From an uncultured Bacteroidales bacterium (GTDB lineage: Bacteria > Bacteroidota > Bacteroidia > Bacteroidales > UBA1402), in assembly GCA_964575345.1 (NCBI GenBank), contig CAZNQD010000004.1:7325-71324 (forward strand): a DNA stretch of 64,000 nucleotides, given 5' to 3'. The first letter of the stretch is position 1, and every line of letters begins with the position of its first letter. A program made the translations under genes and the position numbers. Below the pieces are notes generated by a model. The model did not search any database. It was not told the origin of the DNA and saw only the letters and a list, made by a program, of their open reading frames with translations. This document shows, piece by piece, positions 1 to 32,250 of the stretch.

Positions 1-247
1 GCCATTTTTGTAAATTGGTCGAATCATCGGTCAAAGACCAGTTCTCCAGATTAACAGCCTGATCTCCGGCATTGTACAATTCTATCCAGTCCGAATTTTC
101 ACCGTCCTCATCTTGAATGATGCCATCGTTTATACTCATAAACTCATTGATGACCAGCTTAGAATCGGCATTAACAGCGAAAACTGAAGATAAAAATAAT
201 ACCAGGAGTAAACCGGTTTTAAGAGCGGCAGTCACAAATCGCAGCAT
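1..247 (-). CDS. Secreted lamin-tail-domain (LTD) protein, N-terminal fragment running off the window edge (absent from ORF track)
   Basis: Manual translation from ATG at 247: MLRFVTAALKTGLLLVLFLSSVFAVNADSKLVINEFMSINDGIIQDEDGENSDWIELYNAGDQAVNLENWSLTDDSTNLQKW. This is a signal peptide plus the VINEFM..N...D..DWIELYN...L..W.L.D LTD signature. Confidence 0.85.
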   Translation of the reverse strand, partial: MLRFVTAALKTGLLLVLFLSSVFAVNADSKLVINEFMSINDGIIQDEDGENSDWIELYNAGDQAVNLENWSLTDDSTNLQKW

Positions 248-313
248 ACAAATAAAGAGAAAAGGATTAGGATTTGGGTTATTCAACAAGTACAAAAATC
301 AACAATAAAGCGA

Positions 314-321
314 CAAAAATA
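314..321 (-). promoter_or_regulatory. Bacteroidota primary-sigma -7 element (TATTTTTG) for the LTD gene
   Basis: TAnnTTTG match upstream of ATG 247; back-to-back with the ansA promoter. Confidence 0.55.
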
Positions 322-351
322 GGCAAAATTTTGTAATTGTCTCTATTTGTC

Positions 352-359
352 TATTTTTG
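352..359 (+). promoter_or_regulatory. Bacteroidota -7 element (TATTTTTG) for ansA
   Basis: TAnnTTTG with TTTG (-33-like) at 330-333; supports a GTG start at 379. Confidence 0.6.
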
Positions 360-378
360 TGCATCTAAAACGAACATC

Positions 379-1443
379 GTGGAAAAACATAATGCGGTAT
401 TGCTAATCTGTACAGGCGGCACCATCAGTATGTCCGAAGATTCTGTTACCGGAGCATTGCGGCCTGTCAATTTTGAAAAGATCTTCGATTACCTGCCCGA
501 ATTAAGCAAAACCGGACTCAGAATAGATTCCATTGCTTTTGATCCACTTATAGACTCCTCCGACGTTGATCCTTCGAGCTGGAGCAAACTGGCCCATATC
601 ATCTACGACCACTACGGTCAATACGATGGTTTTGTAGTGTTGCACGGAACCGATACCATGGCTTATTCGGCTTCGGCTCTGAGTTTTATGTTGAACAACC
701 TGGCCAAAGCCGTCATTTTTACAGGCTCACAATTGCCTCTGGGAGTATTGCGTTCCGATGCGCGCGAAAACCTGCTCACTGCCATCGAAATTGCCGCAGC
801 CAGAGAAAACGGCCAGGCCATGGTGCCCGAAGTCTGCATCTTTTTCGAAGACACTTTATTGAGGGGCAACAGAACTACCAAACATAACGCAGACCACTTT
901 AACGCTTTTCGCTCGCACAATTATCCTCCTTTGGCCAAGGCGGGAGTACACATTAAATACGCCAAAAAATTCATACATTATCCAAACCCGCAAAGCTTAC
1001 TCAGCCTGCGTACCCGCATCGACCAACAAGTGGCCGTACTGAAAATATTTCCGGGAATTTCAGAAAAAACGGTGCGAGCCATCCTGGAGATACCCGGCCT
1101 GAAAGCAGTAGTACTCGAAACCTTCGGTTCAGGCAATGCCCCCCGTCAGGAATGGTTACGAAAAGCCCTTTCAGAAGCCAGTGACAAAGGCATTATTCTG
1201 GTCAACAAAACCCAATGCGCAGTAGGTTCGGTAGAAATGGGACGCTACGAAACCAGCCTCGACTTGCTGAAAGCCGGTGTACTGAGCGGTATAGACATTA
1301 CCACCGAAGCCATCGTGACTAAACTGATGTATCTGATGGGGGAACATGCTTCAACGGAAGAGGTAAAAAAACTTCTGCAGACCAACCTTTGCGGAGAGAT
1401 AAGCCTCGAAGACGAACAGGCCTACTCCGAACCCTTGCGATGA
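379..1443 (+). CDS. ansA: Type I (cytoplasmic) L-asparaginase
   Basis: TGGTI and HGTDTM catalytic motifs, FTGSQLP, FRSHNYPPL; start set to GTG 379 downstream of the promoter (ORF track start 337). Confidence 0.93.
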   Translation: MEKHNAVLLICTGGTISMSEDSVTGALRPVNFEKIFDYLPELSKTGLRIDSIAFDPLIDSSDVDPSSWSKLAHIIYDHYGQYDGFVVLHGTDTMAYSASALSFMLNNLAKAVIFTGSQLPLGVLRSDARENLLTAIEIAAARENGQAMVPEVCIFFEDTLLRGNRTTKHNADHFNAFRSHNYPPLAKAGVHIKYAKKFIHYPNPQSLLSLRTRIDQQVAVLKIFPGISEKTVRAILEIPGLKAVVLETFGSGNAPRQEWLRKALSEASDKGIILVNKTQCAVGSVEMGRYETSLDLLKAGVLSGIDITTEAIVTKLMYLMGEHASTEEVKKLLQTNLCGEISLEDEQAYSEPLR

Positions 1444-20374: not shown

Positions 20375-21427
20375 TTAAAAGGAACGCAATTCATTGGCTG
20401 CCAGCATATGAACAAAACAGCTACGAATTTCCTTCAAGGGAAGAGGAAGATTCCAGTCCTGTATAAGCTCTTCGATCAAATCGAGAGCCGGAGGGATGCT
20501 TTCCTTAAAACCCGGTTTGTGTTCCACTACACCTCTGAAGCCGAAAGCTCCTAAGGCCTGCATTAGGCGCAGCAAAACCGCTGCATGAAAATAATGAAGG
20601 AAAGCCCCGGCCCCGATGGACGTTTTTGTTTCCAGCAACGATACATAATACTTCAGCAATTCTACCCGCACATTCCTGGGTAAATACGACTTGGCATCGT
20701 ACAACAGCGAAGCAGGGTCGTATTGCAATAAACCCCTGCGTCCTCCTTGAAAATCAATAAAATAGGGCTCATCCCCCATCACCATAATATTGGCCGTCTG
20801 GAAATCACGAAACAAAAAATAGTCCGAAGGAGCTGTCTGTAAAAAATCGACCAGGCTGCGAAAATCATTTTCCAGGGCCTGCTCATCAAAAGGGATTCTA
20901 AGTAAACGCAAAAAGAAATACTTAAAATAATTCAGATCCCAATGCATGGCATCCCTGTGAAAAGAATCACTGGGCGTAGATTTGGAATAATCAATGCAGT
21001 CTTTTCCGGCCAATTGCATATCCAGCAGACAACTCAGGCTCTTTTTATACAAATGGATAAGACTATCAGGGAAAAAGGCCGCCGGTTTATCTTTGACAGG
21101 AAACCATTCTGAATTCAAAAGGCCGAACAAGCTTTGATCGCCTAAATCCTGCTGCAAATAAACACAGCCCATGGGGTCTGTTGCATAAATTTGGGGCACA
21201 GGCAGGCCGGCCTGATAAAAGGATTGAGCAAATGAAACAAAGGCGGCATTTTCCCCGGGATCGGCATTCCAGGCCCCAATCAGGCTGGCAGGAGCGGGTG
21301 TCGGCATATAAATGCGATAATACTGACGATACGATCCGCAGGCCGGTATTTCCCGCAATTCAAGCATTTCCAGGCCAAATCGTTGTTTACACAAACGAGC
21401 CAGTCTTATTTCAATCTTCTCTTCCAT
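20375..21427 (-). CDS. APH-family phosphotransferase, AmgK-like anomeric MurNAc/GlcNAc kinase candidate
   Basis: GSYRQYYR, YLQQDLGD.SL, FRDFQ..NIM, FIDFQGGR.G..QYD.ASLL.D, L.QALGAFGF.G; -7 element TATTTTTG at 21459-21466. Confidence 0.8.
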   Translation of the reverse strand: MEEKIEIRLARLCKQRFGLEMLELREIPACGSYRQYYRIYMPTPAPASLIGAWNADPGENAAFVSFAQSFYQAGLPVPQIYATDPMGCVYLQQDLGDQSLFGLLNSEWFPVKDKPAAFFPDSLIHLYKKSLSCLLDMQLAGKDCIDYSKSTPSDSFHRDAMHWDLNYFKYFFLRLLRIPFDEQALENDFRSLVDFLQTAPSDYFLFRDFQTANIMVMGDEPYFIDFQGGRRGLLQYDPASLLYDAKSYLPRNVRVELLKYYVSLLETKTSIGAGAFLHYFHAAVLLRLMQALGAFGFRGVVEHKPGFKESIPPALDLIEELIQDWNLPLPLKEIRSCFVHMLAANELRSF

Positions 21428-21499
21428 AATTAGTAGTTCAGGGAGCCTCCTCCGGCAGCAAAAATAACTATTTTTCCGAGCGAAAAAGCAGCCTGTGCT

Positions 21500-22693
21500 T
21501 TATTTGAAAAAAACCAGACTGTTGGGATTCAAGCCGACACTCATGAATCTAAACTTTAAATTCCCCTCTGCAGAAAAACACAAACAATCCCCCCAGAGGG
21601 TATAATCGTAGGCATCGCTGATATACACATCGCCGGAATAAGGATTCACTTTTATGGTATAGGGCCGTGTGACAGGAGTTCCGTCTGTTATGAATTGATC
21701 CGAAATTATCGTTTCTGTCAGGCAATCAAAGACTTTTACAGAGTTTTGTCCTCCTTGTACCGAATAATGGTAGATATAGGCAGTGTCGTTGTGTATAGCC
21801 AGATTCCAGGCCGGAATGTCCTGAAATTCCTGTACAACCGAATCAAGCTGACTATCTATCCGGCATAAACTAAAAGGAATATCCAGTAAATTACCCCTGA
21901 GTACCACGTAAATATCGCCCTGGCTGTCCACCTGCATGAGGTAAGGATTGAGCCCTGTTTCTATTCTTTTTATTTCACGAAAGCTGAGCGGATCGACCAC
22001 CGAGATACTGCTGTCAAAATTGGGATTATCCAGGCCGCCGGAGTTGGATACATAAATTTTATTGTTCACTACGCAGATTCCGTCCGGATTCCGTCCGCAA
22101 TACACATAATCTTCTACCTCCAGGCTGGCGGTATCGATTCTGGAAAGGCTGCCGTCAAAAGAACAGACATAGGCTTTGCCGTCCACAAAATCAATATAGC
22201 GAGGCTGTCTGGCCCGCTGATTTTCATCAAATAAGGGAATGCGCTTTATTGACAATCCGCTGTGTAGGTCCAGAACCTCAATTTGCGAAGACAGGCTCAC
22301 TACAATATAAAGTTTGGATCCATAGGCCTTCATATCGTTTCCGGTATCGCCCAAACCTCTCTTGTTTAGCAATCTGAACATATTCTTATTCAAGCTTTTC
22401 TGTTCAAAAGAATAATAAGCCAGGGTGGAATTGTTTAAATTCATCAGGCCTTCGGACAAAATCCAGAGTCCACGGCAAGCACCCTGAGCCAGGCCCGGCA
22501 AATCGCCGGTACTTTCGGGTTGATCTTCCAATTCACACGAAGTCGTCAGCAAGGCAGTCAACAAGATCAATCCCAATGCACCAAGTTTGGCAAATACCGC
22601 CAAAGCAGCTGACAGAAATCTTTGTTTACCAATTAAAAATAATCTTCGCTCTGAAAGAACGTCCCGGCATAGGATAATTTCGAATGATTTCAT
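21500..22693 (-). CDS. btuG: BtuG-like surface beta-propeller lipoprotein (B12 capture; DUF5074/YncE family)
   Basis: Lipobox LTTSC followed by acidic ELED; SEG....NNSTL.YY, LGDTGND, PRYI, NPDGI, P..I.V.P.SGD.Y.SDA.DY...G motifs; downstream of btuB. True start probably 3' of 22693. Confidence 0.8.
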   Translation of the reverse strand: MKSFEIILCRDVLSERRLFLIGKQRFLSAALAVFAKLGALGLILLTALLTTSCELEDQPESTGDLPGLAQGACRGLWILSEGLMNLNNSTLAYYSFEQKSLNKNMFRLLNKRGLGDTGNDMKAYGSKLYIVVSLSSQIEVLDLHSGLSIKRIPLFDENQRARQPRYIDFVDGKAYVCSFDGSLSRIDTASLEVEDYVYCGRNPDGICVVNNKIYVSNSGGLDNPNFDSSISVVDPLSFREIKRIETGLNPYLMQVDSQGDIYVVLRGNLLDIPFSLCRIDSQLDSVVQEFQDIPAWNLAIHNDTAYIYHYSVQGGQNSVKVFDCLTETIISDQFITDGTPVTRPYTIKVNPYSGDVYISDAYDYTLWGDCLCFSAEGNLKFRFMSVGLNPNSLVFFK

Positions 22694-24677
22694 ATTGTTT
22701 TCCTGTTATGTTTAATACTTCAGCTCCCAGTGTCATTTTGGTCTTAACCAAATTAAATGACCTGTTGAGCGAGATCCCCTGATCGGTATAGGCCGGCATA
22801 CGATTCAGGGCATAATTCTCGAAGCCCGAGTAGCGAATGCCCGAATACAGCAGGTTGTACGAGAATTGCCAGTCAAAGGCATGCAAGAGTAAAACGCCCG
22901 ATCCGCTGTGCCTGGGCGTATAAGGCAATTGATGTCCGTAAGCCCTGCTTTCGGGATCGGTCACATTCAAAACCGACTGCAGGGTATAGCTCGCTTTAAG
23001 AGCAAGGGCAATGTTCTTATTCAAAGAGCAATCCCAATCCAGGCTCAAATCCAGGCCTTTTATGCTGACTTCTCCCAGATTCAGCATAGTCCATACAAAA
23101 ACATTTTGCGTAGGATAGGCCACAATTTTGTTTTCTACCCGGTTGGCATACACATCCAGGCTAAGGCTGAGTTCCCGGCCGATTGGCGGACTTATACTCA
23201 GGCTGGTACCCAGGTCCAGCTGCCGGGTATTTTCGGGAATCAGATCGGGGTTACCGATGCGACCATAATACAAATCGTTGAAACTGGGCATTCTGAATAT
23301 GGACTTATAGAAAGCCCTCAGATACCAGCGCAGTTTTTCTACAGGCCTCAGCGACACCGAAACCGAGGGTGTAAGCTTGCTGTAACCGGCTCCCTGAGGC
23401 CCCGCCCCTGTTTCTTCCATAATCCGGCATAAAAGCAGGTTACCACTCAGATTCCAGGCACCTGCCGATGCTTTCCCGGCCAGCACCGTGTAAAAACTCA
23501 GGCGCTGAGGACGGTTTGCAAGAAACTCTTCAGAAAAAAGCTTCTGCATGCTTAAATCCTGCGACAAGACCAGGCTGAACGCCGATTTGGGTTTATATTG
23601 CAAAGCTCCGCTCAGATACGACTCAGTCTGCCAATACTCGCTTTCATCCCGGCCGTCGGAATTCAAAAAGGAAGGATCGAGATAACGGGAATAACTGCCG
23701 TTTATTTTGGCGTCCAATCGCAGGCTCCAATGCGGATGTAAAAGGCTTTTGTAATGCCCCTGTATAAAAGTTTGCTTATCCCGGAGCCTTTGACCCGAAG
23801 AATTCCCGCTGTTATAATAGATACCTGCTCCGGGCAAGCCCCGCTCCGATTGGTTGTAATATAATTTAATCGTGGCCTCTGAACCTTTGGTATTACGCCA
23901 GTACCAGGAGGGCTCCAGTCTGAACTGGCGAATATCCGAATTCAGGCGACGTTCTCTGCTGACCAAGTCTTCCCGGGAGCCATAGTACATTAAATAGGGA
24001 TAATCCCCGCAGGATTGCAAATAGTAAACATCCAGGCTGACAGATTGCTGATTTCTGAGCTTATGTTGCAGCAACAAAGAGGGATTCAACAGGCCAAAAG
24101 AACCGCCTTGAAACCTCAGTCGCAGGTTTTGATTTTTATCGCGGGCAAAACGGGGTTTCAGGCTTTGGAGCTGCAAGAGGCCGGCGGAAGCGAACAAACG
24201 GGCAGGTTGAAATATATCTTCGGTTTGCCCGGTACTCAGGCTTATGCTTTCCAGGGCATCCAGAGAAAAACGCCCCAGATCGATCTGCCCGTTTTGTACA
24301 TCTGTCACCGGCAATCCATCGTAGGAAAGAGCCGTATGATTTGCACCCAGGCTGCGGACAGAAATGGTTTTGAGTCCGCCCAATCCACCGTAATCCTTGA
24401 CACTTACACCGGTAAAAAATTTCATGGCATCCGCTGCCTGCAAAAACGGCAGTGCCTGGAAAAAGCTGCTGTCCATTTCCTGAACCAGTTTGCCCTTTTG
24501 TACTTTTGCTTCAGATTCCCGGCCCAATACGATAATATCCCCGATGGTATAATCCTGAGCAACAGGCTCGGTATAGGCGTATAAGTCTGCACTCGCAGTC
24601 TGAACAGCAAACAGGCTCATTAATAAGCTTATCAACAAAAGCTTAAACACAAAGGCCAAACTAAGTGGTTTTTTCAT
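22626..24677 (-). CDS. btuB: TonB-dependent cobalamin receptor
   Basis: Plug motifs (DYGGLGGLKTISVRSLGA.HT.L.YDG.P..D.Q.GQIDL), GNPDL.PE, YPMPGRSF, terminal aromatic W; cobalamin riboswitch upstream. Confidence 0.9.
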   Translation of the reverse strand: MKKPLSLAFVFKLLLISLLMSLFAVQTASADLYAYTEPVAQDYTIGDIIVLGRESEAKVQKGKLVQEMDSSFFQALPFLQAADAMKFFTGVSVKDYGGLGGLKTISVRSLGANHTALSYDGLPVTDVQNGQIDLGRFSLDALESISLSTGQTEDIFQPARLFASAGLLQLQSLKPRFARDKNQNLRLRFQGGSFGLLNPSLLLQHKLRNQQSVSLDVYYLQSCGDYPYLMYYGSREDLVSRERRLNSDIRQFRLEPSWYWRNTKGSEATIKLYYNQSERGLPGAGIYYNSGNSSGQRLRDKQTFIQGHYKSLLHPHWSLRLDAKINGSYSRYLDPSFLNSDGRDESEYWQTESYLSGALQYKPKSAFSLVLSQDLSMQKLFSEEFLANRPQRLSFYTVLAGKASAGAWNLSGNLLLCRIMEETGAGPQGAGYSKLTPSVSVSLRPVEKLRWYLRAFYKSIFRMPSFNDLYYGRIGNPDLIPENTRQLDLGTSLSISPPIGRELSLSLDVYANRVENKIVAYPTQNVFVWTMLNLGEVSIKGLDLSLDWDCSLNKNIALALKASYTLQSVLNVTDPESRAYGHQLPYTPRHSGSGVLLLHAFDWQFSYNLLYSGIRYSGFENYALNRMPAYTDQGISLNRSFNLVKTKMTLGAEVLNITGKQYEIIRNYPMPGRSFRAKIIFNW

Positions 24678-24801
24678 CTCGCGGCAAATTCAGCGATCCT
24701 GCGTCGCTTTTGGTTAGTGCCGTAAAAATGAGGAGAACCGGAGTAAAGGGTAAAATATCCTTATGCTCAGCTTTTCCTCGAAAGCTTTTTGACGGCATGT
24801 C

Positions 24802-24957
24802 CTGCAAACAGGTTTTCTGACTTGGTCTGTCTTCACGGCCTTCCCATCCATAAGCATAGACAGTGGCCTTGAGCGGAATAAAAGTCGGGCTGAGCCTGAC
24901 TCCGGCCTTACAGCAGCGGGACTGTTCCGGATTTGCACCGGATTCCCTTTTTTGCAG
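24802..24957 (-). ncRNA. Cobalamin riboswitch
   Basis: AGGGAAUCCGGUGCAAAUCCGGAACAGUCCCGCUGCUGUAA ... GCCACUG ... UGGGAAGGC ... AAGUCAGAAAACCUG (B12 box); -7 element TATTTTTG at 24961-24968. Confidence 0.93.
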
Positions 24958-25013
24958 CAGCAAAAATACGGTATTTATTTATGGAATACTATATTTTACG
25001 ATAAAAAGATTGC

Positions 25014-26510
25014 TCAATGCATTACCGCCTGAACAGCATCGCCTTTGAGGCTGCGGGCAAATTTCCGGGGAGAAATACTGACAGGTTCTTTCATAAATTC
25101 CGGAATGTTGTAGGATTTCATAAAGCCCAGGTGAAAATCAGGATCCTTTTGGGGCAAAATAAAAGGTTTCCCTGCCCTGCCCTGTTCATCGAAATAGGCA
25201 AGGTAGGGACGGGTGTATGAACCATCGTCCCTGCGGCTGCTAAATACGATCCAGCGCCCGTTCGACGACCAGGAATGATAACTTTCGGTATCCTTGCTGT
25301 TTAGTTCTTCGAGTGATCTTATGGTGTTGTTCTGAAAATCCAGCAAATACAGATCGCTGTTTTTGTGCCAGATGTGGAAAGTACCGTATTCGGCCATGGA
25401 AAACAACAGATACCTGCCGTCGGGAGAGACCCTGGGCAACAAAGCACTCATTCCGATGGATCCGGCATCAACCAATAAACGCGGCTCTCCAAAGTTGCGC
25501 TGTTCGATATCGAAGCTCATAGAATAAATATTGTATTTCACCTCCTGATAATAAGTAGCCAAATCACTTTCACGGTCTCCGGTCTTGCTTTCAAAGCGGG
25601 CGGAAGAGTAATACAAAGTCTTGCCGTCGGGCGACCAGGAAGGAAAAGTTTCCAGGGCGACACTGTCGTTCTGTATTATACTTACCTGATTTTTTGTTAT
25701 ATCGTACAGAATCAAATCGGAATTCCGGTCCAACACTTCCACTTTCTGGATGTCTTTGGAATGAAACAGCTGGTTGGTGTTGTTCACCGAATAGGCAATC
25801 AGTTTTTCGAAAGGATGCCAGGCCGGGTAAACTCCGGCAGAGATCAGTTGATCGGTTTTGAGATTAACTTTTTGGGGTACCCCGTCGCTGACAATAAGGG
25901 TTCCGGCGTGGTGAGCCCGGGCATGAAACTGCATATTGTCGGTTTGGTAATTCTGATAAGAATGGCAATTGATGCATTGAAAATCTTCTTTTTCGGAAAC
26001 CAGATTATTGTTATATATGTCTTTTTCCCAAAAACTGCCCAAATGCCGTTGCCGTATACAGAGATTCTCGTATAAAACATACGAAGGCTCAATCAGGCGA
26101 TAAGAAAGGTACCCGTCAATAGAATCAGCGGCTATGGTATTGCTGAAAGGTTTATAGCGCTTCCATTCTCCGTCTTTTTGAGCATATACTTCAATCGAAT
26201 ATTTTCCGGACTTGTTGGCCTCCAGCAGGGCTTGCCACTTTTTTATAGGAATCAAGACTTTAGGGCCTTTCAGTACAAGAGAATTACCCTGCTCTCCCTG
26301 GATCCTGACCAGTATCTTTTCGGCAGGGACATCGACTTTAAAATTCAAAGGGGCGATATTACAGGGAATAATCAGATTCCTGTAATCCGGACTGATTTTA
26401 ACTTCTTCGCCGAGCTCGGCACAATCAACGGGCAGAGTCGGACTACATGACCACATCATGGCCACGATAAAGGGCACTGCCCATAAGCGGTATAAAAACG
26501 TTGAAATCAT
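25014..26510 (-). CDS. TolB-like/PD40 beta-propeller lipoprotein with a CXXCH motif
   Basis: Lipobox MMWSC; repeats YPAWHP, FPSWSPDG, PRVSPDG, SYHSWSSNGRW; CINCH at 25962-25976. Confidence 0.8.
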   Translation of the reverse strand: MISTFLYRLWAVPFIVAMMWSCSPTLPVDCAELGEEVKISPDYRNLIIPCNIAPLNFKVDVPAEKILVRIQGEQGNSLVLKGPKVLIPIKKWQALLEANKSGKYSIEVYAQKDGEWKRYKPFSNTIAADSIDGYLSYRLIEPSYVLYENLCIRQRHLGSFWEKDIYNNNLVSEKEDFQCINCHSYQNYQTDNMQFHARAHHAGTLIVSDGVPQKVNLKTDQLISAGVYPAWHPFEKLIAYSVNNTNQLFHSKDIQKVEVLDRNSDLILYDITKNQVSIIQNDSVALETFPSWSPDGKTLYYSSARFESKTGDRESDLATYYQEVKYNIYSMSFDIEQRNFGEPRLLVDAGSIGMSALLPRVSPDGRYLLFSMAEYGTFHIWHKNSDLYLLDFQNNTIRSLEELNSKDTESYHSWSSNGRWIVFSSRRDDGSYTRPYLAYFDEQGRAGKPFILPQKDPDFHLGFMKSYNIPEFMKEPVSISPRKFARSLKGDAVQAVMH

Positions 26511-26511
26511 C

Positions 26512-28434
26512 TTAGTTGGTTTTTAGGTCTTTAACAAAACAAAAGTAATACCAATAGCTTTTTTCAAAAGACCTTTTAAGCAAAGTGGCCAACTTCTCTT
26601 CTGATAAATGCGTATTGGACTCGGTAATGCGTTTGAATTCATCAAAACGCTGCAAAACCTGGGGATCCATCAACTTTATAATATCTCCCAACTCTCTTTT
26701 TTCGAAATAGGCCAGCAACAAGGCTGCTTCCTGTACATGCCGGGGCAAAGGCAGTTTTTTGTTTACATAGACATAAAACATCGGCCAGAATTTGTACACC
26801 GATTTAGTGGTCAGTATAGACGACATAGACCATTCGAGCATTTCATCGGTACCTGACTTCAAATTGCAGAAATGGTTCAGGATGGCCAATTCCATAACCC
26901 GTTGGTCCTGACCCAGTATGTCTTCGTATTTAGTCAGCGCCAGCAGGGTTTTGTATTGTTTATTCTCAAGTAAAAGAGCCGGATCTTCGAGGTATACCCG
27001 ATGCGATGCAGCCCATTTTTTGTAAAACAAGGTTTTCTCCAAAATGTGAATGTATTTCCCGGCCAACTCCATTTCCCGGTTGAGCAGGGCCGACATCATC
27101 ATAAACCTGAGATTCTCCGTACGGGGGCCAAACAAAACCATATTCTCCATATTCCAGCGATAGGAATAATTCAGCAGGCCATAATAAAAACAATTGATAG
27201 GCGCCCCGATAATGGTGTTGCTTACCAGGGAATTTTTGGTATGGAAAGGCTCATCAGAGTTGGGAAACGTGAACATCTTTTCACAAAGCTGGTTTTTATT
27301 GTACAACGCTATGTTTCTGTAAATCACAATCAAACGATTAGGGCTTTTGTTGGGTTCACGAGCCAGTTCCAGCACTTTGTCCCAATCGTTGTCCGAAATG
27401 GCCCTTTCCATGGCCAGCTGAGTTTTAAAATTCAGGTCTTTGTATGAGCCTGCCTGTACAAATGTAATGGCCAGTGCAAAAAAAAGCAGGTTCAGCCACC
27501 AAAGCGGCCGGCAGGAATTCGTTTTGGACAGATAGAGCAAAGACAAGCCCGATAAAAACAAAGGACAGGCCACCAGTGCTGTCCACATCAAAGGGCTGTT
27601 GGGGTAATCATACACCGGCAGGCCGTAAGCAAAAAGATACTTCGGGTTGATGTCTTGTCCGGACAGGACGAAAAATAAGGGCGGAACAGCTAAGAGAAAA
27701 AGCAAAAGCAACAACTGCCTTAACAATAGTTTTGGTTGATGTTTGGTTTTGGTTTGATGTTGATGTTGATGTTGAGATACTTCTTGAACTTTATTTTGAA
27801 AAGCGCTTTGACCGGCAGCAAACAATCTGACCCACAAAAGCAAAGCTCCCAATAAGGCATAGAAACCAAAGAAGGGATAGGCCAGGAGAATATACATCGC
27901 CAGGATCAGGATTCTGGTCCTGGTTCCGGGGAAAAAACGTGCAACAAAAAGAGGCATCACTGCCAGTACCATACCCGCCAATTGCGATAAAACCGCATAC
28001 TTGGCCACGAAAATGCTGTATTCCTGCATGCCAATATAAAGCAGGGCCATCGACAGCGGCAGCAAACTCAGCAGCCTGAGTTGTTTAGGCAATTCAAAGG
28101 CCCGAATCAGCATCCATTGCCAAACCAAAAGCAGAACTGTCAGTATAATGGCACCCAGCCATGGATAAAAAAAGAACTGAGTCAGAAACTTTCCCGCGTA
28201 TTCCAGCAATCCTCCAGGGCTTTGAAGGTGTTCGTTGAAAAAAGCCTTGTCGAACAGAAACAAAGTCAATTCCTGCAGACGAAACATCAAATCGGCTTTA
28301 TATATCCCAAGGAACCAGAAGCTGTACAAAGCAAACAACAGACTGCCCGTAGTATTGATCCAGGTGTATGTTCCGGCCGGCAGTTCCTGCCGGGGTGCTT
28401 TCTTTTTGCCGGGTTTACTGCTTTTGTTCTGCAT
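26512..28434 (-). CDS. DUF6057-like polytopic membrane protein with a C-terminal soluble domain
   Basis: Roughly 9-10 hydrophobic segments, QE..LFLF, PGGLLEY.G.FLTQFF.YPWLGA, then W..V....NR....RN.AL...L...MF..P; adjacent to the propeller gene. Confidence 0.7.
   Translation of the reverse strand: MQNKSSKPGKKKAPRQELPAGTYTWINTTGSLLFALYSFWFLGIYKADLMFRLQELTLFLFDKAFFNEHLQSPGGLLEYAGKFLTQFFFYPWLGAIILTVLLLVWQWMLIRAFELPKQLRLLSLLPLSMALLYIGMQEYSIFVAKYAVLSQLAGMVLAVMPLFVARFFPGTRTRILILAMYILLAYPFFGFYALLGALLLWVRLFAAGQSAFQNKVQEVSQHQHQHQTKTKHQPKLLLRQLLLLLFLLAVPPLFFVLSGQDINPKYLFAYGLPVYDYPNSPLMWTALVACPLFLSGLSLLYLSKTNSCRPLWWLNLLFFALAITFVQAGSYKDLNFKTQLAMERAISDNDWDKVLELAREPNKSPNRLIVIYRNIALYNKNQLCEKMFTFPNSDEPFHTKNSLVSNTIIGAPINCFYYGLLNYSYRWNMENMVLFGPRTENLRFMMMSALLNREMELAGKYIHILEKTLFYKKWAASHRVYLEDPALLLENKQYKTLLALTKYEDILGQDQRVMELAILNHFCNLKSGTDEMLEWSMSSILTTKSVYKFWPMFYVYVNKKLPLPRHVQEAALLLAYFEKRELGDIIKLMDPQVLQRFDEFKRITESNTHLSEEKLATLLKRSFEKSYWYYFCFVKDLKTN
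27730..27800 (-). repeat. Short hexamer repeats encoding a His/Gln-rich loop
   Basis: (TGATGT)x3 and (TGGTTT)x2 on the + strand; protein QEVSQHQHQHQTKTKHQPK between TM helices. Confidence 0.65.
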
Positions 28435-28443
28435 ATTCTCTCT

Positions 28444-29577
28444 TTAGAAAGGGGCAAAATCTTCGTTTGATACAGGTAGAACTGCCATACATTCCATTTC
28501 GACCAACCATTGGCTGCGGCAAACAGGAGCCAGTACATACACTTGAGGTACCTTAGGTAATCTACTGTTAACCAATGACTTTACCAATTCGTAATCGGCC
28601 ATGTCACGCAAATATACAACAACATGAGCCAAATCTCCAAATCCGGCACCGGCCTCCGACAACAAGGCTTCCACATTTTCGAACATTCGCCGGGTCTGTG
28701 CCTGAATATCCATGGGATACAAAGTCTGACCCTGATTGTCAATGCTGGCGGTACCCGAAATAATCACATGCCTTCTATCGCCGTATTCAATGGCTGTGCC
28801 CCGCTCAAAGGTAACACCGTAGAGTTGGGTAGGGCTCAGGTGTTGGGGAGCATACAAATATTTCTGCTGTCCCTTTTTGAGCCCTTGCACCACATAGGCA
28901 TCCATAAACACAAGATTCGAAGGTAAATAATGCCTGCCCTCGATGCCGGTACTTGAAACATAATGAGTATTCCGGTTCAGGCCTTCCTGTTCAAAGACTT
29001 CCCGGCGGGCTCTGACCATACCCTCGTAATTGATGTCCACCGCCTGCACATAGATCCACGTACGCAACAAATGCTCGGCCATATTCAACTTATCACGGCT
29101 CATTTTTTGTTTTAAGTTGTTGAACAATTCAAGGGTTTGTGCATAGGAACCCGAAGACAAATCATTAAGCCCGTAATAATAATAATGCCTGTAGGCAGGT
29201 CTGGTCAAGGTAATCACATTACTGTCCATGCCGAGAAGACCTTCTTGCACAAAATAGCACCACAAAGCCATTTTACTGCCGTCCAGAGGAGCCTGCCCAA
29301 CCAGCGATACAGCTTGGTCCGGCTTGTCAAAAAGCGTATATTGGTTGCAGGGATCACTCAAAAAATACCTTTTCCACACGGCTGTTGCCGGAGAAATTTC
29401 CTGCTTAAGAATTTCGTAGGCTTTATCAAGTAAATCCAGCTGAACTGATGCATTCAGCTTAGATACATTCTTTAATTTTATCAGGGCATGGTATTCATTC
29501 GTCCCATTGTTCGTGGCTGGCCAAAAGGTAGCCAACTGTATTTCGCTGTGTTCTCCCAAGAGCACTTTATACTCCAT
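28444..29577 (-). CDS. Double-domain Rid/YjgF-fold protein (Rid7 / FkbO-Hyg5 chorismatase-like)
   Basis: RTWIYV, STGIEG, YGVTFERG, ISGTASID, VYLRD, APVCR..WLVEMEC; -7 element TATTTTTG at 29608-29615 supports start 29577. Confidence 0.75.
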   Translation of the reverse strand: MEYKVLLGEHSEIQLATFWPATNNGTNEYHALIKLKNVSKLNASVQLDLLDKAYEILKQEISPATAVWKRYFLSDPCNQYTLFDKPDQAVSLVGQAPLDGSKMALWCYFVQEGLLGMDSNVITLTRPAYRHYYYYGLNDLSSGSYAQTLELFNNLKQKMSRDKLNMAEHLLRTWIYVQAVDINYEGMVRARREVFEQEGLNRNTHYVSSTGIEGRHYLPSNLVFMDAYVVQGLKKGQQKYLYAPQHLSPTQLYGVTFERGTAIEYGDRRHVIISGTASIDNQGQTLYPMDIQAQTRRMFENVEALLSEAGAGFGDLAHVVVYLRDMADYELVKSLVNSRLPKVPQVYVLAPVCRSQWLVEMECMAVLPVSNEDFAPF

Positions 29578-29773
29578 ATCACCTCTATTGTTGTTATTTT
29601 TAAAAAGCAAAAATACAGGATATTTTTTGATTAATAAACTATCTTTGTGGGCTTATTCAAGCAAAAATCGTCTAAAAATAAATCATTTCCGTACCAGGAG
29701 TTTATACTGATGGCAGTCCGGCCCCAAAGAAATTAATTGGCAGCCGGGCTTAGCTTCAACAAAAAGATAATAT

Positions 29774-31222
29774 ATGAATCAATCGCTTATTTCTAAAGCT
29801 TTTAGCCCTGATAACTTTCGACATCAGGGCCATCTCCTGGTAGATTTACTGGGAAATTACCTGGAATCAGCCCTGCAAGGCTCAGAACCTGTAAATCAAT
29901 GGAGAAGCCCTGATGATCAGCTCAAATTCTGGCAGAACGATTACAAAGAGGGCGACAGGCATCTGGAGCATTATTTCAAACAGTTGATTGACGGTTCCCT
30001 GCACATGCACAATCCCAAAAACATGGGGCATCAGGTGGCGATTCCGGCTCCCGAAAGTGCACTGGCCGGGCTGTTGACCGAACTGCTCAACAACGGAACT
30101 GTAGTTTACGAAATCGGAGCTCCGGCTGTGGTGTTGGAACGTATCGTTTGTAAACAGCTGGCTCAGGAAATGGGCTTTGATCCCGACAAGGCCGACGGCT
30201 TTATGACTTCCGGAGCTTCATTGGCAAATCTTACGGCATTGATGGCCATACGCAATATCAAGGCCGGCGAAGATGTCTGGAGCAAAGGGAACCGCAAACA
30301 ATATGCCCTGATGGTGTCCGAAGAAGCCCATTATTGCATAGATAAAGCTTTGAGGATTATGGGTCTGGGCGAAGCAGGTATTATTCGTATACCTGTAGAT
30401 GAACATTTCAAAATGCGTACAGAGCTGCTCGAAAGCGCATACCAGGCTGCCTGTGGCCGGGGCGTCGAAGTGCTGGGAGTAATTGGCTGCGCTTGTTCTA
30501 CTTCGACGGGAACCTACGAAGAACTGGAACCTCTGGCCGATTTTGCACAGACACACGACTTGTGGTTTCATGTGGATGCCGCGCACGGGGGGCCTGCTAT
30601 TTTCTCGAAAAAACACAGGCATCACCTGAAAGGTATTGAACAAGCCGATTCTGTGGTGATGGACTTTCACAAAATGATGCTGAGCCCTGCTCTTTCGACG
30701 GCCATTCTTTTTCGTCAGGCAAAGGATTCATACCGCAGTTTCAGCCAAAAAGCCCAATATCTCTGGGAGGAACAAGAGAAAAGTTCCTGGTTTAACCTTG
30801 GGCAAAGGAGCTTTGAATGCACTAAACTGATGATGAGCGTAAAAATTTACACCCTGCTCAGACAATACGGCACCGCTCTGTTCGAAGAATACGTCGATTA
30901 TACCTACAACCTGGCTCAGGTCTTTGCCGGTATGCTCAGGCAGGAGACCGATATGGAGCTGGCCCTGCAACCCGAAACCAATGTGGTTTGCTTTCGTTAT
31001 AAACCCTTGGGCGAGTTAAGCAAAGCAAGCTTAAGCAATCTTAACAGCCGGATTCGAAAGAAGTTGCTCGAAGACGGAGAATTCTATATAGTACAAACCC
31101 AGCTCAAAGAAGAGATCTGGCTCAGAGTAACACTGATGAATCCCTTCACCACAACCAGGGAACTGCAGGCTTTACTGGAAAAAATCAAACAACTTGGCAA
31201 ACAGCCCGGGTCCCGGGACTAA
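29774..31222 (+). CDS. Group II PLP-dependent amino-acid decarboxylase (Ddc/diaminobutyrate decarboxylase-like)
   Basis: MGHQV, TSG.S.ANLTAL, AHYC..KA, WFHVDAAHGG, DFHKM (PLP Lys); -7 element TATCTTTG at 29640-29647. Confidence 0.85.
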   Translation: MNQSLISKAFSPDNFRHQGHLLVDLLGNYLESALQGSEPVNQWRSPDDQLKFWQNDYKEGDRHLEHYFKQLIDGSLHMHNPKNMGHQVAIPAPESALAGLLTELLNNGTVVYEIGAPAVVLERIVCKQLAQEMGFDPDKADGFMTSGASLANLTALMAIRNIKAGEDVWSKGNRKQYALMVSEEAHYCIDKALRIMGLGEAGIIRIPVDEHFKMRTELLESAYQAACGRGVEVLGVIGCACSTSTGTYEELEPLADFAQTHDLWFHVDAAHGGPAIFSKKHRHHLKGIEQADSVVMDFHKMMLSPALSTAILFRQAKDSYRSFSQKAQYLWEEQEKSSWFNLGQRSFECTKLMMSVKIYTLLRQYGTALFEEYVDYTYNLAQVFAGMLRQETDMELALQPETNVVCFRYKPLGELSKASLSNLNSRIRKKLLEDGEFYIVQTQLKEEIWLRVTLMNPFTTTRELQALLEKIKQLGKQPGSRD

Positions 31223-31266
31223 CAGAGGCACAACAGAATAACTCAGGTAATTCTAAAAACATCATT

Positions 31267-32250
31267 TCAGCGTTCTGATTTTCCGGAACTGACTTTATCG
31301 AGAATTACGGCTCCAAGAATAACAAAACCCTTTATGACTTGTTGCCAGAAGGGAGAGACATTCAGCAAAACCAGACCATTGTTGAGCACCCCGATAATCA
31401 GCGCACCCACCACAGTGCCGGCAATGGAACCTTTACCACCGCTCAGGGAAGTGCCTCCGATGACTACGGCGGCTATGGAATCAAGTTCATAACCGCTGCC
31501 CGCGTTGGGCTGGGCAGAATCCAGTCTGGCTGTAACCATTAGCCCGGCCACGGCAGACAATAATCCGGCCAGGATATACACCCGGAGGATAATTTTATTC
31601 ACCTTGATTCCCGACAACAAACTGGCTTTTTTGTTGCCTCCGATAGCGTAAATATAACGTCCCATGCGGGTTTTGAGCATAAAAAAAGCAAAGAAGGCTA
31701 TAATGAACAGGGCTACCCACACCGGCATGGGCACTCCCAAAAACCAGCCGGTACCCAAAAAAGAAAAACTTTCGCCCAGGCCTGTAATGGGGAAACCCTT
31801 GGTATACAACATAGTCAACCCTCTGGCTATGGTGAGCATGGCCAAAGTAGCCACAAAAGGCGGCACCCTGAAACGTGTAATCATCCAGCCGTTAAAGGCT
31901 CCCAGCATACCACCGGTGAGTAAAGCGGCCAGTATACAGCCCCAAAAGGTAAAGCCCACATAAAGGTCGGCAGCGGGAAAGCTGAAACCGTTTCTGTTCA
32001 GCCCGGCAGCCACAGCACCACTCAGCGCCAGAATGGAACCCACAGAAAGATCGATGCCTCCGGTCAGAATAACCATGGTCATTCCTACCGATATGCATAG
32101 GTTGACAGAAACCTGGCGCAGGATATTGAAAAAATTGTCGCCGGTGGCAAAATTCTCCGAAAACACAGCCATGGCTCCTACCATCAGAAGCAGAGCAGCC
32201 AGTGGTTTAATAACCGGCTTGTCAATAATTGCCTTAAAGTTCGTTTTCAT
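31267..32250 (-). CDS. Monosaccharide ABC transporter permease (RbsC-like)
   Basis: GMTMVILTGGIDLSVGS, P.FVATL, YAIGGN..A..LSGI, YELDSIAAVVIGGTSL.GG.G. Confidence 0.95.
   Translation of the reverse strand: MKTNFKAIIDKPVIKPLAALLLMVGAMAVFSENFATGDNFFNILRQVSVNLCISVGMTMVILTGGIDLSVGSILALSGAVAAGLNRNGFSFPAADLYVGFTFWGCILAALLTGGMLGAFNGWMITRFRVPPFVATLAMLTIARGLTMLYTKGFPITGLGESFSFLGTGWFLGVPMPVWVALFIIAFFAFFMLKTRMGRYIYAIGGNKKASLLSGIKVNKIILRVYILAGLLSAVAGLMVTARLDSAQPNAGSGYELDSIAAVVIGGTSLSGGKGSIAGTVVGALIIGVLNNGLVLLNVSPFWQQVIKGFVILGAVILDKVSSGKSER

Follow-up and report, generated by a model that had tools for sequence, protein, structure and literature searches.

Why does an exported β-propeller protein carry the attachment motif of c-type haem, and what links it to a membrane protein of the family DUF6057 and a chorismatase-like enzyme? 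These questions are raised by three genes at positions 25014–29577 of a 64,000-nucleotide stretch (hereafter the window) on contig C4 (CAZNQD010000004.1) of an uncultured bacterium of the order Bacteroidales (GCA_964575345.1; genome size 2.47 Mb, 96% complete). All three lie on the minus strand. Gene 1 (28444–29577; 377 amino acids (aa) from its ATG) encodes a predicted cytoplasmic enzyme of the chorismatase family with a two-lobed Rid-like fold, gene 2 (26512–28434; 640 aa) an inner-membrane protein of the family DUF6057 (PF19529), and gene 3 (25014–26510; 498 aa) a propeller lipoprotein with PD40 repeats (PF07676). A preliminary description of the locus had read these genes as a three-gene unit behind one promoter and knew of no assigned function; a literature search indeed gave no paper that mentions DUF6057, and no function has been published for the DUF6057–propeller pair. 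We found that this pair forms the fixed core of a system in which the chorismatase is a nearly universal, often unlinked, third component, and we propose that the three genes may serve a haem-bearing module at the outer face of the inner membrane.

The core of the system is the DUF6057–propeller pair, not the trio. In about 70 of 80 genome loci, the gene directly upstream of the propeller, read in the same direction, encodes DUF6057. The same order is seen for almost all copies in 42 loci drawn from 23 families, where the pair also occurs in tandem arrays of two and four. We sampled 201 Bacteroidales genomes evenly across about 148 GTDB families, with the propeller scored at E ≤ 1e-60. The presence/absence profiles of PF19529 and the propeller were identical in this sample (22/22 genomes, no singles; Fisher p = 8e-30). 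Three records (P0177, P0207, and P0265) call one protein with both domains, which could be either a genuine fusion or read-through in gene calling. The partners also diverge together: a mirror-tree comparison of DUF6057 with the adjacent propeller gave r = 0.74 (39 pairs), against 0.35 ± 0.09 when partners were shuffled within genomes, and none of 2000 shuffles reached the observed value. Sequence divergence is much faster in DUF6057 (mean identity 21% vs. 39% in the propeller). Identical profiles, adjacency, joint duplication, fused records, and co-divergence together led us to treat the two proteins as an obligate, one-to-one matched pair. The pair is found in about one in eight sampled Bacteroidales genomes (48/401), often in multiple copies, and elsewhere it frequently sits among SusC/SusD and glycoside hydrolase genes. 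When 1035 flanking open reading frames (ORFs) were clustered for a third conserved neighbor, only lineage-specific synteny (DPP-IV, MATE, SusC/D, GH2, GH97, GH10) emerged besides the chorismatase.

The propeller gene encodes, judging from its sequence, an exported lipoprotein. Its N-terminus, MISTFLYRLWAVPFIVAMMWSC, ends in a lipobox cysteine, Cys22 (codon 26445–26447, minus strand), the predicted lipidation site that closes the signal peptide; a cysteine aligns with Cys22 in 116 of 150 family representatives. The PD40 repeat is recognized by PF07676 at 65.8 bits. An AlphaFold2 (AF2) model (mean predicted local distance difference test (pLDDT) 84) places a β-sandwich domain at about residues 30–130, followed by a six-bladed propeller at about residues 135–475 with four strands in each blade. 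The family is large, with more than 8000 matching clusters at 90% identity and 718 representatives at 50% identity scoring below 1e-30. By sequence, the sole solved relative is TolB (E = 0.003). All structures that Foldseek retrieved with the propeller model were generic propellers (TM-scores of 0.3–0.4; acylaminoacyl peptidase, S9, tricorn, carotenoid oxygenases), with no haem enzyme among them. A degenerate paralogue (465 aa, 325 bits) is encoded in the same genome on contig C31 (3952–5349, minus strand); it has lost CxxCH as well as H379, H382, and H412, and no DUF6057 gene adjoins it. It is convergent with a 663-aa exported ORF, which looks like a GH51-type arabinofuranosidase, and the same arrangement occurs in a sister genome.

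Within the propeller, one element stands out. The preliminary description had located C-I-N-C-H, a candidate site of c-type haem attachment, at 25962–25976 (minus strand), which we confirmed as residues 179–183, and it had suggested checking the conservation of the motif and the presence of maturation genes. CxxCH occurs in 120 of 120 homologues of at least 52% identity, is invariant in an alignment of 21 sequences (21/21), and is kept in the form C-x-N-C-H in 146 of 150 representatives of 50%-identity clusters. Of the four sequences without it, three are gapped at the motif columns, and two of these three are far shorter than full length. A histidine follows the second cysteine in all 147 ungapped sequences. 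CxNCH is therefore as conserved as any residue in the family; R198 (148/150), H232 (143/150), H196 (132/150), and H412 (130/150) are the other conserved positions. DSSP assignment of the AF2 model sets the motif on the first strand of propeller blade 1. Compared with Pfam at E ≤ 10, the isolated segment matched CCP_MauG alone, at its first haem site and weakly (E = 0.013).

The genome also holds the machinery for cytochrome c maturation by system II. ResB (PF05140) and CcsA (PF01578) are encoded on contig C26, directly upstream of a tri-haem CCP_MauG peroxidase. There the synthase is split into a ResB-like protein of 315 aa and a CcsA of 266 aa, and the peroxidase has an N-terminal haem-binding domain; most other sampled Bacteroidales have a fused CcsBA of 800–1000 aa. 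Very few other CxxCH ORFs are present in the source genome. Across the 201-genome sample, CcsA was found in 20 of 20 high-quality propeller carriers and in 134 of 160 other high-quality genomes. A further set of propeller carriers contained it in 25 of 26 cases, giving 46 of 48 propeller genomes overall; for pooled high-quality genomes the comparison is 40/41 vs. 134/160 (p = 0.006, binomial; p = 0.02, Fisher). Covalent haem binding at CxNCH is likely on these grounds, if unproven.

Gene 1 matches PF01042 in its C-terminal lobe and, weakly, the chorismatase model TIGR04444 of NCBIfam. We built a profile (A3) from the window protein and seven homologues that neighbor propeller pairs. Searched against the PDB, it matched Hyg5 (5AG3, E = 3.7e-48) and FkbO (4BPS, E = 3e-39) over residues 109–340 of 340, a span that includes both catalytic lobes, and the motifs RxWxY, TGI, FxR, SGTA, and CRx5ExE are invariant in it. 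A published analysis (PMC7170507) names Glu-334 as the acid on which Hyg5 depends, and two glycines and one cysteine as the marks of the CH-II subfamily. Gene 1 has E360 in VCRSQWLVEME, C353 seven residues earlier as in Hyg5, and G275 in SGTAS, all invariant in A3. C353 is the position mutated in 5A3K relative to 5AG3, and FkbO has SATAG where gene 1 has SGTAS. Neither a signal peptide nor a hydrophobic segment was detected in the protein. We assign gene 1, by these residues and profiles, to a divergent branch of the chorismatase family as a predicted cytoplasmic enzyme of Hyg5-like type. The earlier label of Rid/chorismatase-like hydrolase thus stands in its second half and not as a generic Rid hydrolase: against the RidA model TIGR00004, gene 1 scores 41 bits (cut-off 106), and only the C-terminal lobe of its 377 aa matches. 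RidA deaminase is a single domain of about 125 aa.

How firmly this enzyme belongs to the pair depends on the scale at which one looks. Among the 80 closest loci, which are of Prevotella/Bacteroidaceae type, only two have a chorismatase gene within 7 kb. At the level of whole genomes, an A3 match was present in 20 of 22 propeller genomes and 8 of 179 others in the 201-genome sample (Fisher p = 4e-19), and in 25 of 26 further propeller genomes; the lone exception, a 750-contig assembly, also lacks CcsA. Outside Bacteroidales, the propeller occurred in 4 of 300 Bacteroidota genomes, all four with a chorismatase (0/13 negatives). In total, 49 of 52 propeller genomes encode the chorismatase vs. 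8 of 192 others, a spread that takes in two classes and over 20 GTDB families. In three of the four non-Bacteroidales genomes, the locus was fetched and showed all three genes side by side on one strand, once in the window order and twice as DUF6057–propeller–chorismatase; in the fourth genome the chorismatase gene follows the propeller by about 240 nucleotides (nt). Over all 52 genomes, it lies within about 3 kb of the pair in about 18, in three arrangements that differ in order and orientation. Adjacency that recurs in three arrangements is the outcome expected of a functional link between chorismatase and pair, and not of inherited synteny. The preliminary view of a three-gene unit is therefore supported, the checks it had named on motif conservation and co-occurrence having come out in its favor. 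It holds for the obligate pair and for the co-occurrence of the chorismatase, including contiguity in another class, and needs refining for adjacency, given those roughly 18 of 52 genomes.

The other neighbors of the chorismatase gene are informative in their own right. Among 31 Bacteroidales loci surveyed, it stands beside the DUF6057–propeller pair in eight. In another eight, it is part of a conserved cluster of ~15 kb comprising IclR, a propeller-cytochrome c with two CxxCH, the chorismatase, Dak1/Dak2, a DeoC-type aldolase, a fused CcsBA, and a 1330-aa protein with NPCBM, HZS_alpha, and FGE-sulfatase domains and two CxxCH (L132–L136, L143, L145, and L146). Two small proteins without assignment and a Mala_s_1-like protein are also encoded there. 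To our knowledge, no function has been described for this cluster. Kinship between the window propeller and the HZS_alpha-domain giants was considered and dismissed (hhalign probability 3.8%). Five loci combine the chorismatase with a porin, an imelysin, a di-haem DHOR protein, a second porin, and a small cytochrome c, often directly beside CcsBA (L130, L131, L149, L150, and L152); two of these also have a hemerythrin and a LuxR-type regulator. Two loci pair it with a PSCyt2–PSD1 protein and DUF1501. CxxCH proteins adjoin the chorismatase in about 21 of the 31 loci, which supports the propeller motif being a true haem site and points to periplasmic haem proteins, as a class, as users of the chorismatase product.

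The DUF6057 partner offers fewer clues to its activity. Gene 2 matches PF19529 at 273.7 bits (cut-off 29.8; profile positions 5–179 and 182–568). Its AF2 model (pLDDT 86.7) has nine long hydrophobic helices within residues 20–329, followed by an all-helical repeat domain (residues 334–633). Hydropathy and positive-inside counts showed a Lys/Arg-rich N-terminus and Lys/Arg-rich alternate loops, for which reason the N-terminus is predicted to be cytoplasmic and the C-terminal domain periplasmic. No PDB relative was found (best E-value 0.18 in Foldseek and 0.28 in profile searches), and neither search gave a GT-C, NrfD, or transporter fold. Tetratricopeptide-repeat (TPR) and pentatricopeptide-repeat proteins head the Foldseek list, weakly (E ≥ 0.18), and there is no TPR match in Pfam. 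Conserved polar positions in the membrane part are Q86, Y139, K145, and Y186. A second DUF6057 (39% identical) is encoded in the same genome on contig C97 (1342–3300 of locus L005, minus strand). The gene downstream of it (3–1325, minus strand; >441 aa) proved unrelated to the propeller; it has no Pfam match and contains an HExxH motif (IHEGIH). DUF6057 may thus have partners other than the haem-motif propeller.

Taken together, these observations return us to the question of what the three proteins do. The preliminary description had placed gene 1 in the cytoplasm and gene 2, which would reach into the periplasm with one domain, in the inner membrane, with gene 3 exported as a lipoprotein; this arrangement holds at the level of sequence and structural models. 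We hypothesize, and give the idea about an even chance, that the trio is an operon for an undescribed envelope system joining a haem-bearing lipoprotein, its own DUF6057, and a chorismate-derived aromatic acid. The propeller lipoprotein would be exported, and the ResB/CcsA system II synthase would link one haem covalently to CxNCH, which lies on the inner strand of blade 1. At the outer face of the inner membrane, the lipoprotein would be docked to its own DUF6057 through the periplasmic helical domain of that partner. The cytoplasmic chorismatase would cleave chorismate into pyruvate and a hydroxybenzoate (3-hydroxybenzoate type), and this aromatic acid or a derivative would be needed or acted on by the haem site, whether as substrate, as co-substrate, or as electron mediator. 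Seen this way, the pair would work as a periplasmic haem enzyme module and not as a TolB-like scaffold.

Several points weigh against this proposal. On the propeller, no Pfam or NCBIfam cytochrome model passes threshold, and the motif lies in a β-strand modeled at moderate confidence (pLDDT about 67–82); classical haem c sites sit at the start of a helix. The co-occurrence with CcsA agrees with haem attachment and is not strong, being weakly discriminating because CcsA is common in Bacteroidales (about 84–86%). Taken alone, gene 1 of the window scores 43 bits where the TIGR04444 cut-off is 325, and it may thus act on a substrate other than chorismate. Monohydroxybenzoates, moreover, mediate redox reactions poorly. 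No chorismatase gene was found, even at E ≤ 1e-10, in three of the propeller genomes (G065, G125, and G291). The membrane part of DUF6057 has no conserved histidine, cysteine, or acidic cluster and indicates no specific activity. The idea that DUF6057 exports the chorismatase product was set aside: the enzyme accompanies three other CxxCH systems that have no DUF6057, so DUF6057 is not the general route of the product to the periplasm.

Some of these points would suit a different role for the motif. CxNCH may be a structural or catalytic metal site (Cys2-His, completed by H196 or H232) or else a disulfide, either redox-active or structural. The pair would in that case be an envelope machine without redox function, such as a binding or scaffold protein of TolB type that DUF6057 tethers and that handles glycans or peptides in polysaccharide loci. 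The missing cytochrome domain and the strand position predicted by AF2 fit such a role, as do the company of SusC/SusD and glycoside hydrolase genes, the usual function of PD40 propellers as binding domains (TolB, the N-domains of S9 peptidases), and the several other invariant histidines that could form a metal site. A disulfide would not require the histidine that follows the second cysteine in 147 of 147 sequences, which is a hallmark of haem c; nor does this explanation account for CcsA in all but one high-quality propeller genome, or for chorismatases elsewhere beside bona fide cytochromes (CCP, DHOR, and the HZS_alpha-domain protein) and CcsBA. We consider it a possible explanation of limited probability. 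Alternatively, DUF6057 could be dedicated to maturing or holding the propeller with which it is paired, in analogy to the TPR apocytochrome chaperones CcmI and NrfG, presenting the unusual CxNCH site to CcsBA or inserting and retaining the lipoprotein, with the mature propeller acting alone. Strict one-to-one pairing with co-divergence fits such a factor, as do the periplasmic helical-repeat domain with its weak structural matches of TPR type, the C31 paralogue that lacks both CxxCH and an adjacent DUF6057, and the faster divergence of DUF6057 (21% vs. 39% mean identity). On the other side, the window protein has no TPR match in Pfam; a membrane domain of nine helices and about 330 residues, with its conserved polar positions, goes far beyond the needs of a chaperone anchor; DUF6057 lacks a WWD or histidine haem-handling motif; and the second DUF6057 on C97 has no adjoining propeller, indicating that the family can act without one. 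We regard a pure maturation role as unlikely.

The remaining alternative concerns gene 1 alone. Its co-occurrence with the pair might reflect shared ancestry or lifestyle, making the chorismatase a chance neighbor that, like XanB2, supplies hydroxybenzoate for an unrelated purpose such as a quinone, a pigment, or a diffusible signal. Known chorismatases do feed secondary metabolism and ubiquinone (PMC7170507, PMC12423496). Some room for this idea is left by the low rate of adjacency (2/80 among the closest loci, about a third when all genomes are counted) and by the eight genomes that have a chorismatase and no pair, but the genome-level association (49/52 vs. 8/192, over two classes and more than 20 GTDB families) speaks against it, as does adjacency in three gene orders, which inherited synteny would not lead one to expect. 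No polyketide, nonribosomal peptide synthetase (NRPS), aryl-polyene, or UbiA-type genes were found beside the chorismatase in the 31 loci. This explanation is poorly supported, and we judge it very improbable.

The proposal of a haem enzyme module can be widened, more tentatively. A chorismate-derived aromatic acid, the product of a chorismatase branch not studied before, may be a dedicated co-substrate, cofactor precursor, or electron mediator for non-respiratory periplasmic c-type haem proteins of anaerobes, with the pair as a new class of haem enzyme whose haem is carried directly on a PD40 propeller strand and held by a membrane partner of novel fold. Its clients would be the DUF6057-tethered propeller and, elsewhere, the propeller-cytochromes, the HZS_alpha/FGE-sulfatase giants, and the di-haem DHOR proteins. 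In the literature, we found nothing linking a chorismatase to cytochrome c and nothing on CXXCH β-propeller lipoproteins of Bacteroidetes. If correct, the reading would add a c-type haem protein of a new kind, its haem carried on a propeller strand, together with an obligate membrane partner that resembles no solved fold. It would also connect the shikimate pathway to periplasmic haem enzymes, a link not described before, and give a handle on the pair within the fiber-degradation loci of gut, rumen, and digester bacteria. Since the trio of the small source genome combines a single haem-type pair with a single chorismatase in one operon, it would be the simplest version for testing.

That the trio is an operon is suggested by the spacers of 9 and 1 nt between its three minus-strand ORFs, as the preliminary description had stated, and by a single intergenic promoter element. 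This Bacteroidetes-type −7 box (TAnnTTTG), TATTTTTG, lies at 29608–29615 (minus strand), 31 nt upstream of the gene 1 ATG, and was the sole match of the pattern scan in the intergenic region 29578–29773. The pattern also matched four times inside genes, once 30 nt before the propeller start, and about 2.8 matches per 5.4 kb are expected by chance. The box claimed earlier is thus present, and a single promoter driving all three genes is plausible and not proven. An alternative TTG start of gene 1 at 29610 falls within the box, which makes the ATG the likely start. A scan for sigma-70 promoters and terminators gave nothing notable, under a model that is not applicable to Bacteroidetes promoters. 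A run labeled 'METAGENOMIC RNA-Seq' (X5) is uninformative on co-transcription, since its 9–17 kb contigs of flat depth look like DNA. Over positions 21400–31300, this run gave contigs of 9.6 kb and 17 kb with even depth across genes and spacers; the contigs break within the riboswitch described below (about 24920–24955), where a one-base insertion variant also occurs. Near-identical DNA was found in anaerobic-digester and wastewater metagenomes.

On its downstream side, the trio ends at 25014 because a cobalamin riboswitch (RF00174; 24790–24997, minus strand, 78 bits) heads a separate btuB-like operon there. This operon has its own TATTTTTG box (24968–24961) and encodes a BtuB-like TonB-dependent receptor (22626–24677) and a DUF5074/YncE-like propeller (21500–22693), two ORFs that overlap by 68 nt as called. 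Divergently transcribed from the trio is a group II pyridoxal phosphate (PLP) decarboxylase (29774–31222, plus strand), whose scores with the models for PanP and diaminobutyrate decarboxylase, ~197 bits, are far under both cut-offs, and which is kept beside the trio only in a sister-genus genome (L129).

Set against known systems, the trio has no characterized counterpart, and its resemblances are partial. TolB (TIGR02800; PDB 4R40, 4PWZ) is likewise a periplasmic six-bladed propeller of PD40 repeats. Gene 3, however, reaches 52.2 bits against a TIGR02800 cut-off of 343.15, has a β-sandwich in its AF2 model instead of the TolA-binding N-domain, and is a predicted lipoprotein with an invariant CxNCH that is paired with DUF6057 and not with tolQRA-pal; a tolQ-tolR-tolA-tolB-pal context is not present at the locus, where the neighbors are DUF6057, the chorismatase-like gene, the B12 riboswitch with its TonB-dependent receptor, and the PLP decarboxylase. 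With Hyg5, FkbO, and XanB2 (EC 4.1.3.45, 3.3.2.13; PDB 5AG3, 5A3K, 4BPS), gene 1 has in common the two-lobed Rid-like fold and the motifs RxWNY, ATGIG, FERA, SGTAS, and CRxxLLVEIE, and with Hyg5 the catalytic glutamate and the CH-II-type glycine and cysteine. Its branch differs as a divergent sister family in anaerobic Bacteroidota that is free of polyketide synthase, NRPS, and pigment genes and tied to exported CxxCH proteins and CcsBA. DUF6057 can be likened to CcmI (CycH) and NrfG, which are membrane-anchored, have a periplasmic helical-repeat domain, and are dedicated to a particular CxxCH or CxxCK client. Unlike them, it has about nine transmembrane helices, no Pfam TPR match, and no association with lyases of CcmF or NrfE type; cytochrome c maturation in Bacteroidales proceeds by system II. 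Cytochrome cd1 nitrite reductase and the alpha subunit of hydrazine synthase, finally, are periplasmic enzymes that join a β-propeller with c-type haem, although neither sequence nor profile comparison showed homology to gene 3. In both, haem c is carried on a separate domain, whereas the motif of gene 3 lies on a strand of the propeller itself.

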